From the IMG/VR virus record IMGVR_UViG_3300025585_000040, positions 1-64,000 of that record: a stretch of DNA of 64,000 nucleotides; one strand, written 5' to 3'. Under the pieces are notes generated by a model. The model did no database searches, was not told the origin of the DNA, and was given only the letters and a program-made list of their open reading frames with translations. The DNA is from a virus. The translations under genes and the position numbers were made by a program. Below are positions 47,772 to 60,561 of this stretch, piece after piece. The stretch's first letter is position 1. The number at the start of each line of letters is the position of its first letter.

Positions 47772-47855
47772 GCCACCATGCCGGAACGGTCTACGGATCG
47801 CACTTAAAATGCGTCGGGAGTTTCTCCCTTGTGGGTTCGAATCCCACTGGTGGTA
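47772..47855 (+). tRNA. trnL: tRNA-Leu(UAA), intronless, CCA not encoded
   Basis: Acceptor GCCACCA/TGGTGGT; anticodon loop CT-TAA-AA; long variable arm; GTGGG-TTCGAAT-CCCAC. Confidence 0.9.
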
Positions 47856-59650: not shown

Positions 59651-59926
59651 CTACTTGTTCTTCTTCTCGTATTCTTCTTTGGTCATCCACTCTTGTTCAC
59701 CCCAGCGCTTCAGTGACTCCTGACCTTCGGTTTCTTCACCCCTGTAACCACCACCTCGTTTTTTGTACGCCTGGGCGAGTAGTTGTGCTTTCCTAGCCGA
59801 ATAAATTAGTTAGCCTTACGGCTACGACCACTCTCCACTCTTGCCACCTTTGGACCCACGCATGATCTGCTGTTTCAGTCGTTCACGAAGATCAGGTTTG
59901 GTATAGCGCCCTTTGTTTTCAGCCAT
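59651..59926 (-). CDS. DUF5872-like basic protein interrupted by a 27-nt coding gap (candidate ribosomal bypass)
   Basis: GAGGT SD, then MAENKGRYTKPDLRERLK..GSKGGKSGEWS / gap / ARKAQLLAQAYKKRGGGY..SLKRWGEQEW; absent from the ORF track. Confidence 0.7.
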
Positions 59927-60524
59927 AACTACCTCTGGTTTTCAGATAATTTAAAGAGTTTTCCAATGTAATTATGCTATCACCCAATAATCCAATTCCC
60001 CGGTTACAGTTTCTGCATAAGAGTCCGCGCACATCTCCAGTTTCATGGTTGTGGTCGACGACTAAACCTTGAGTTGGCTTTGGTGGCGTACAGCAAATTG
60101 CACAGGCACCGTTTTGGGCCTCGAGCATAACCTCATACTGATCTTTAGTTATTCCATGTCGGTGATATTTTTTATAGTCCTCGTGACACTTTCTGTCTGA
60201 TTCAAGTTTTTTGTCCTTGTATTCCGGGTGTAAATCAACCCATTTACCCCATGCGCGGGAAGAGCATTCTTTGCATTTAGACCTTAAGTACCTCTTCCCG
60301 TCTTGAACGCGATAAGAGAACTGATCCCACTGAAGAATTCTTTTGCACGCACTACATTCCTTTTTCCCTGAGGTACCGTACAGTTCTACCAGACGGACGT
60401 GAACACTGGATTTACAGTTTCTGCAAACGGTATCGCGTCTTACAGCACCGGTCTTAGTTTTACCTTTTGAATGAAAAAGGTCGTAAGGCAGCGCTTTCTT
60501 ACATTCTTTACAGGTCTTAAGCAT
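59919..60524 (-). mobile_element. Endonuclease VII-family putative homing endonuclease
   Basis: Two CxxC-rich N-terminal repeats; QNGACAIC..VVDHNHETGDVRGLLCRNCNRGIG. Confidence 0.88.
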
Positions 60525-60561
60525 GCGCCTTTCGGATTTTTAAAATCCTAGCACAAAAAGC

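Follow-up and report, generated by a model that had tools for sequence, protein, structure and literature searches.

A candidate gene-60-like translational bypass in a phage DUF5872 gene, linked to an HNH endonuclease cassette

An interrupted DUF5872 gene

The stretch of DNA analysed here (hereafter the window) comprises positions 1 to 64,000 of the IMG/VR virus record IMGVR_UViG_3300025585_000040, a 77.6-kb contig that is ~90% complete. Near one end of this 64-kb window, the minus strand carries a small gene of the DUF5872 family that is interrupted in mid-motif: the sequence runs ...GEW-UCG / UAGCC-GUAA-GGCUA-ACUAAUUUAU-UCG / GCU AGG..., and a gap of 27 nucleotides (nt) with three in-frame stops (TAG, TAA, TAA) breaks the WSARKA motif of the family. 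Straight translation gives 34 amino acid residues, then (stop)P(stop)G(stop)LIY, and then SARKAQLLA..., while a join from the first TCG to the second gives a protein of 82 residues. All of this is exactly as an earlier reading of the sequence alone had described it, down to the TAG that follows the first TCG, the hairpin that begins there, and the second TCG 27 nt further on. The pattern TAGCC-N4-GGCTA occurs once in the window, as against 0.07 occurrences expected from shuffles. Contigs from three other, independent studies (2023-2025) span the gap without an insertion or deletion, and we therefore conclude that the gap is not an assembly error, which the sequence-only reading had named as one way in which its interpretation might fail. 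A further suggestion in that reading, that the gap could be a decayed duplicate of the ARKA codons, does not hold up: by eye, 3 of 11 positions match.

Directly upstream, and in the same orientation, lies a gene for an endonuclease-VII-type HNH protein whose stop codon overlaps the DUF5872 start (ATGGCTGA). The protein scores 81 bits against PF02945 (cut-off 23.6 bits) and has the catalytic motif DHNHETG...N, with the catalytic domain at its C-terminal end; we presume that it is the homing nuclease of the cassette described below.

The read-through translation of the interrupted gene matches phrog_17747 with E=1.7e-17, whereas its match to the Pfam model DUF5872 (PF19197) is weak (E=6e-4; 20.8 bits, below the curated cut-off of 27.5). 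On the phrog_17747 profile the N-terminal half of the protein (N half) occupies positions 14-44 and the C-terminal half (C half) positions 44-63; since the one ends and the other begins at position 44, the two halves abut exactly at the serine. The 40 database homologues (60-76% identical, 52-130 residues long) carry PF19197 and are all uninterrupted, reading ...KGGKPGQWSARKAQLLAQAYK..., and ~35 homologues have the contiguous family motif ...GQWSARKAQLLA...; residues W, S, K, and A of the motif are invariant among them, and the gap falls in the most conserved motif of the family. The expectation that most homologues would have a contiguous WSARKA is thus borne out for those without the nuclease gene. 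An AlphaFold model of a gap-less homologue, of low confidence (mean predicted local distance difference test score, pLDDT, of 56), hints that the second helix begins at the gap junction.

Table 1. Features of the interrupted gene, its gap, and the upstream nuclease gene (window coordinates; ORF, open reading frame).
Feature	Position	Strand	Remarks
Cassette, approximate extent (intergenic leader, HNH gene, replacement N half, gap)	59798..60561	minus	ends at landing codon
Endonuclease-VII-type HNH (His-Me finger) gene	59919..60524	minus	201 amino acid residues; Pfam PF02945 E=6e-23; PHROG endonuclease VII 1e-34
Start codon ATG	59926-59924	minus	GAGG at 59935-59932, 5 nt before ATG
ORF1, N-terminal half of DUF5872 protein	59825..59926	minus	34 codons, MAENKGRY...KSGEWS
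Purine tract GGA GAG (Gly-Glu codons)	59831..59836	minus	separated from take-off codon by UGG (Trp), 3 nt
TGG TCG before gap	59830-59825	minus	read from sequence
Take-off codon UCG (Ser34)	59825..59827	minus	TCG in 44/44 gapped alleles
UAG stop, first three bases of hairpin	59824-59822	minus	read from sequence
Whole 27-base gap TAGCCGTAAGGCTAACTAATTTATTCG, second TCG included	59824-59798	minus	three in-frame stops
Take-off hairpin UAGCC-GUAA-GGCUA (candidate)	59811..59824	minus	folding ~-7 to -8.6 kcal/mol
A/U-rich spacer ACUAAUUUAU (DNA letters ACTAATTTAT)	59801..59810	minus	more stops; no UCN codons
Landing codon UCG (candidate)	59798..59800	minus	decoding would resume at GCU (Ala)
ORF2, C-terminal half (ARKAQLLAQAYKKRGGGY...EYEKKNK)	59651..59797	minus	48 codons + stop TAG at 59653-59651; own start codon absent

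The pentamer GGCUA is present twice in the window sequence, once as the 3′ arm of the hairpin and once in a copy that overlaps the landing codon (UC-GGCUA-GG), within 59798-59815 / 59811-59824, and the UAGCC 5′ arm could alternatively pair with the second copy, which would bring take-off and landing codons together. As a general feature this pairing was rejected: it needs the Ala-Arg codons GCU AGR, and of the 44 alleles described next it can apply at most to the 13 in which GCU encodes the alanine.

Natural gapped alleles and the mobile cassette

A pattern scan of viral contigs, together with two looser scans, recovered 50 gapped loci beyond the window; with the window these make 51 viral-metagenome loci, which represent 44 distinct alleles and 21 distinct gaps. 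The gap measures 23 nt (2 distinct alleles), 24 nt (13), 27 nt (15), 28 nt (7), 29 nt (6), or 33 nt (1). Across these lengths a common design is kept. Specifically, i) the take-off codon is TCG in all 44 distinct alleles and the landing codon TCG in 42 and TCT in 2, whereas the serine codon at the same site in 29 gap-less alleles is TCA (9), TCT (6), AGC (5), TCG (4), TCC (3), or AGT (2); ii) UAG directly follows the take-off codon in every allele; iii) the stem UAGCC/GGCUA is kept in 43 of 44 alleles, although adjacent synonymous sites are near saturation (synonymous differences per site, pS, 0.6-0.8), the alanine codon after the landing site being GCA, GCT, GCG, or GCC and the Pro/Ser codon at -4 taking six forms; iv) the loops are GUAA, GUGA, GGGA, GCAA, and GAAA only, that is, GNRA with all four bases found at N and both purines at R, as against a GNRA loop in 0 of 37 non-family matches to the stem pattern; v) the spacer is 73-100% A+T, compared with 51% in the window; and vi) a UC dinucleotide before the landing codon occurs in none of the 21 distinct gaps, where a shuffled gap has none with P=0.24 per gap.

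Scans in which the stop codon or the take-off codon was left free found no other type. A metagenome scan for stem variants with a base other than C after UAG gave unrelated matches only among the matches listed, and has no bearing either way; an Rfam search gave no match. The looser viral scan added only two loci, L102, which has lost the hairpin core and is the exception to the stem (discussed below), and L104, which is degenerate (L104:1016-1120; N half REWPWIGKPGEWS, 3′ arm GGCCA, SARKA codons damaged), this copy being either in decay or poorly assembled.

Two purine tracts accompany the design. The glycine codon of the GGR-GAR tract upstream of the take-off codon is GGR in 44 of 44 gapped alleles, compared with 11 of 29 gap-less alleles. 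Glutamate at -2 was also tried as a mark of gapped alleles and was rejected, gap-less GEWSARKA alleles being common. Closer to the landing codon, the only Shine-Dalgarno-like (SD-like) element is RAGG, which is located in the loop and the 3′ arm at a distance of 9-19 nt; in the window this is an AAGG within the hairpin, and the earlier statement that no mini-SD is visible before the landing site needs to be amended to that extent. Loop class follows gap length (xxAA with 27-33 nt, xxGA with 23-24 nt), an association that is confounded by phylogeny. RNAalifold suggested that GCUGA, at the start codon, may pair over a long range with UCGGC, at the landing site, two sequences that do not vary among the alleles.

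In 20 of the 21 gap variants a stop closes every route into the landing frame, and no single frame reads across; gaps of 23, 28, and 29 nt shift the frame, and at every gap length the frame in which the C half is conserved is the one set by the landing codon. All 44 alleles have both halves of the gene intact, and both are under purifying selection. For the N half, the ratio of non-synonymous to synonymous differences per site (pN/pS) is 0.27 in its own frame compared with 1.4-1.7 in the wrong frames. For the C half, 0 of 44 alleles have a stop in the landing frame, compared with 42-44 of 44 in each of the others; the landing frame has a pN/pS of 0.21 (pS 0.81, saturated) and the wrong frames 1.3-1.9; and site diversity at codon positions 1, 2, and 3 is 0.23, 0.13, and 0.52. 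Because some of the C-half divergence may predate the insertions, we also analysed the five closest pairs that share a gap, in which C-half differences amount to 56.8 synonymous and 19.2 non-synonymous (pN/pS 0.08). Decay of the flanking halves like that of a pseudogene, another outcome that would have spoken against the sequence-only reading, is not seen in these 44 alleles. The N half is basic, as that reading had remarked of the upstream peptide, and is well conserved (pN 0.04-0.12); its sequence is like that of ordinary N halves in the family, and no specific nascent-peptide signal can be assigned to it.

The HNH gene lies directly upstream in gapped loci, in full in 36 of 51 and as a 3′ remnant in 4; the contig ends there in 3, and 8 have none. 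In gap-less loci, an HNH gene was found within 1.5 kb in 0 of 42. Full-length HNH proteins are 46-69% identical across gapped loci, and the gene is under purifying selection (pS 0.67-0.78). Where the nuclease gene is missing (8 loci) or reduced to a remnant (4 loci), the gap and both halves are still intact. The closest relatives of the window (L009, L011, and L003; flanking proteins 84-98% identical) lack both the nuclease gene and the gap, and in them the DUF5872 gene directly follows an upstream gene of 216 amino acid residues; alignment with these three places the insertion directly after the stop codon of that upstream gene. In nucleotides, the window is 65% identical to L009 over the N half and 80% over the C half.

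Two phage lineages carry the cassette: lineage A, which is window-like and has a C half of 48-50 residues, and lineage B, with a C half of ~61 residues that resembles the C half of the gap-less Synechococcus phage S-EIVl. Within lineage B (20 loci), nuclease distances are correlated with N-half distances (rho 0.61) and not with C-half distances (0.08), and N-half and C-half distances are likewise uncorrelated (0.03); pairs that differ by 3-8% in the nuclease gene and N half have C halves that are 12-35% different. Around the landing codon in the 27-nt clade, the stretch from ~-190 to +17 has an identity of 0.89-0.97, which falls to ~0.7 on either side. We conclude from the distance correlations and from the drop in identity around the landing codon that the nuclease gene, the replacement N half, and the gap travel together, and are one mobile unit ending at the landing codon. 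By analogy with what has been proposed for MobA, the gap presumably removes the target site of the cassette's own nuclease.

In L014 (lineage A), the HNH catalytic region differs by only 7-8% in nucleotides from the lineage-B copies in L047 and L074, and the N and C halves by ~36-39%; the nuclease gene seems in this case to have been exchanged apart from the other cassette parts. A 13.3-kb contig of depth 183 in run X7 matches the window only at 59800-59836 (37 bases: the gap and the GEWS codons) and diverges on both sides, and a far more abundant phage in the X7 sample appears, by this match, to carry the same cassette core.

The DNA polymerase of the phage is 41-44% identical at most to that of any cultured phage, and the description of the phage as a cyanophage is not supported. 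A blastn search of the locus against named phages gave no match, and the DUF5872 genes that tblastn found in cultured phages (S-EIVl, CRP-9, HTVC033P, and HMO-2011) all either lack a gap or are split in a different way. Elsewhere in the family, in a separate branch, the ORF stops just past GGGYK/T, as in Roseobacter phage CRP-9 (MW514246, L101:1500-1720) and in many viral contigs, e.g. L115, L140, and L152; in CRP-9 the remainder (QKSLKKW...) lies in another frame and starts from an overlapping ATGA. The CRP-9-type arrangement has the look of a gene naturally divided into two ORFs, or possibly of a site of frameshifting, at a position other than that of the gap studied here. A scan of a genome collection gave two true gapped alleles, L319 and L320 (and one chance match), on 2.7-2.9-kb contigs binned into Bacteroidota metagenome-assembled genomes (one Crocinitomicaceae, one unclassified Bacteroidetes), which could be a binning artefact or a weak hint of the host; the support was too weak for a host to be named from these bins. 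The phage also has a tRNA-Leu gene with anticodon UAA (window 47772-47855).

Probable bypassing and its alternatives

The reading that we favour, with a probability of roughly 0.78, is a programmed translational bypass like that of T4 gene 60, placed inside the DUF5872 gene and delivered by a homing-endonuclease cassette; it draws on the sequence pattern and on analogy with T4, and the comparative evidence over 44 alleles fits a bypass, as the sequence-only reading had proposed, better than any rival. The ribosome would translate 34 codons and halt with UCG in the P site, paired to peptidyl-tRNA(Ser). The UAG that follows forms the first 3 bases of the 5-bp GNRA-capped hairpin, which would occupy the A (decoding) site and, if T4 is a guide, hinder both release factor and read-through. 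The peptidyl-tRNA would then unpair, and the ribosome would slide over the A/U-rich, stop-filled, UCN-free spacer, a distance of 23-33 nt (27 nt in the window), until the tRNA re-paired at the first UCG (UCU in two alleles); decoding would resume with Ala-Arg-Lys-Ala and yield a single protein of 82 residues with a normal WSARKA (GEWS-ARKA). The GGR-GAR and RAGG purine tracts may assist, which is speculative.

Several points weigh against a bypass. i) The stretch was found in no public RNA run listed. ii) The sequence-only reading had proposed to check whether interrupted alleles keep matched codons and hairpin covariation; the matched codons are kept (TCG/TCG in 42 and TCG/TCT in 2 of 44), but the stem is invariant and offers no compensatory covariation, and support for the structure comes from the loop pattern and the analogy with T4. 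iii) The hairpin here has 5 bp and ~-7 to -9 kcal/mol, compared with 9 predicted pairs and -14.7 kcal/mol in T4, where the take-off stem-loop has been described as 28-base (bioRxiv 10.1101/2022.08.31.505936). iv) One allele (L102:4396-4581) lacks the hairpin core (TCG TAGCTA TAATATTAAATAATT TCG, 24 nt), yet both halves and the HNH gene are intact, implying either that the hairpin is not strictly required or that the allele is newly dead. v) T4 has a GAG-type mini-SD 5-7 nt before the landing codon, and there is none here. vi) SD-like motifs precede 10 of 69 window ORFs, compared with 6 of 69 at a control position, and so are not enriched (with crude start calls); for this reason we keep any SD-like pausing or positioning role of the GGR-GAR tract or the hairpin RAGG as speculation. 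vii) The 23-nt variant is open in the +2/-1 frame and is formally readable by one -1/+2 shift. viii) The cassette is mobile, which means that part of the C-half divergence predates the insertions and weakens the argument from selection, to which the close-pair test is a partial answer. ix) DUF5872 has no known function and may be dispensable.

Of the other explanations the one that survives best, although we consider it improbable, is a split gene: termination at UAG would free a 34-residue peptide, ribosomes that slide on after termination and re-initiate close to the landing site would make the C half as a product of its own, and the two peptides would work together or alone. Splitting is tolerated elsewhere in the family (the ATGA-coupled ORF of CRP-9, and the many viral contigs that end after GGGYK/T), and 70S ribosomes are reported to be able to slide after termination (PMC11194080). 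By eye, some gaps do offer AUU or AUA in frame immediately ahead of the landing codon, with AAGG or GAGG upstream, but no start codon is conserved among the alleles: in the 28-nt gaps and in some of those of 29 nt, the codon immediately ahead of the landing codon is an in-frame UGA (also by eye), other 29-nt gaps have a UAA one codon further upstream, and the 23-nt gaps are without a near-cognate start. Re-initiation would moreover leave unexplained both the match of landing to take-off codon (44/44) and the absence of UCN from the gap, and the break sits within the most conserved motif of the family.

Alternatively, a selfish insertion could simply have inactivated a dispensable gene, in which case the intact halves and the features of the gap would reflect recent spread and shared descent. 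This is a little less probable again. Many insertions may indeed be young, the cassette being clearly mobile; DUF5872 has no known function, and one allele (L104) is degenerate. The cassette family is old, however (nuclease pS 0.67-0.78; loops and spacers diverged), and over that time the bypass-specific features are unchanged; the absence of landing-frame stops from all 44 C halves and the pN/pS of 0.08 in close same-gap pairs are not those of a dead gene, nor would a dead gene give any sense to selection for a codon match or to avoidance of UCN in the gap. Alleles without the nuclease gene, which are probably older insertions, are also still intact.

We think it very improbable that the 23-33 nt are removed at the level of RNA, by a tiny intron-like or endonuclease/ligase process, guided by the hairpin, that would restore WSARKA in the mRNA. 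A 3-nt direct repeat (UCG) does bound the gap, and an enzyme could recognise the conserved hairpin. Against this, Rfam has no match, the sole gene of the cassette encodes a DNA nuclease and none is related to splicing, and the UAG, matched codons, UCN absence, and A/U-rich spacer are signals of ribosomal bypass without a known role in splicing; nor do we know of any bacterial or phage self-splicing intron this small.

Finally, read-through, a single frameshift, a reassigned stop codon, or an assembly artefact, suggested at most by the in-frame length of the window's own gap and by the openness of the 23-nt variant, are effectively refuted by the presence of both TAG and TAA in the window gap, the blocking of 20 of 21 variants toward the landing frame, the out-of-frame lengths of 23, 28, and 29 nt, and the recurrence of the gap, free of indels, in the assemblies of three other studies and in 50 other contigs.

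Comparison with T4 gene 60 and implications

The candidate bypass most resembles that of T4 gene 60. The T4 record reads GAT GGA TAGCC-TTCG-GGCTA TCTATAG...GATTATT GGA, and the T4 hairpin UAGCC-UUCG-GGCUA that the sequence-only reading had quoted is therefore correct. [quoted passage not shown] They differ in host gene (topoisomerase II there, a DUF5872 protein of 77-82 residues here), in codon pair (Gly or Asp there, Ser UCG here), and in gap length (~50 nt there, 50 nt in T4 itself, and 23-33 nt here); the target gene is split into two separately named genes in T4 and not here, and the phage lineage studied here is unrelated to T4-like myoviruses. The nucleases belong to different families as well, PF02945 endonuclease VII here and PF01844 in the T4 mobA fragment; a BLASTP comparison of the window nuclease with T4 gp60.1 found no similarity (E=0.85), and homology to MobA is undetectable. 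To call the element independently arisen, as the sequence-only reading did, goes further than these comparisons allow, the stem being identical to that of T4 and the element likewise a nuclease-borne cassette.

Published work on the gene-60 family provides precedents. Cryo-electron microscopy of the T4 take-off complex found a short mRNA hairpin in the decoding site, guarding against termination and read-through (PMC5462505). Manning and Atkins describe GNRA loops in some clades, take-off codons that differ from their landing codons at the wobble position, and gaps down to 20 nt; elements that end at the landing codon; and members that have lost the nuclease or swapped its type, with all cases in the topoisomerase gene of T4-like myoviruses (bioRxiv 10.1101/2022.08.31.505936). 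Each kind of variation among the DUF5872 alleles has a counterpart in that family.

Other systems are less similar. In stop-hops, a peptidyl-tRNA slips past a stop codon onto a nearby cognate codon, and these, like the byps of Magnusiomyces mitochondria, share with the mechanism proposed here the re-pairing of peptidyl-tRNA at a matching downstream codon and the skipping of untranslatable bases. Classic stop-hops, however, cover a few nucleotides with low efficiency and are not known as conserved nuclease-borne cassettes, and the byps of Magnusiomyces yeasts are mitochondrial, 27-55 nt long, many per genome, and have no known HNH link. Freestanding phage homing endonuclease genes protect their own genome via target-site differences; here too an HNH-type gene lies between or inside conserved genes, its presence varies in close relatives, and the flanks co-convert, but the protective change would be an untranslatable insert in a coding sequence, one that needs recoding.

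Programmed translational bypass is among the rarest of known decoding events. The literature searched gives, as natural cases in phages, T4 gene 60 together with homologues of it, all of them a single topoisomerase gene that mostly comes with MobA; full-text searches found no bypass reported in DUF5872 or in any phage gene not belonging to the gene-60 family, except for candidates in Streptomyces phages (PMC10732093). The DUF5872 alleles would add a second family that differs in host gene, nuclease family, codon pair, and gap length (about half) and, if confirmed, would mean that the mechanism is no one-off. The five stem pairs identical to those of T4 in unrelated phages, together with the invariance of the stem over 44 alleles amid saturated synonymous sites, suggest that the ribosome needs a particular sequence and not just any hairpin.

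A wider generalisation is possible, but we offer it only tentatively and think it has somewhat less than an even chance of being right: the UAG-CC/GG-CUA hairpin with a stable tetraloop and an A/U-rich tail could be a portable, sequence-specific take-off module for bacterial ribosomes, which unrelated homing endonucleases (MobA-type HNH in T4-like phages, EndoVII-type HNH here) have acquired or independently hit upon, and which would let them insert into a coding sequence with neither intron nor intein. For such a module, the 21 gap variants found in nature are a ready mutational series, with GNRA loops of five kinds, gaps of six lengths, a single UCG/UCU wobble pair, and a single deletion of the hairpin core. 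Gene callers split or drop genes of this kind, and similar cassettes are probably under-counted in viral metagenomes. Were the take-off module real, selfish nucleases would have in bypass cassettes a third general strategy, in addition to introns and inteins, and the 23-33-nt family would be its compact natural version.

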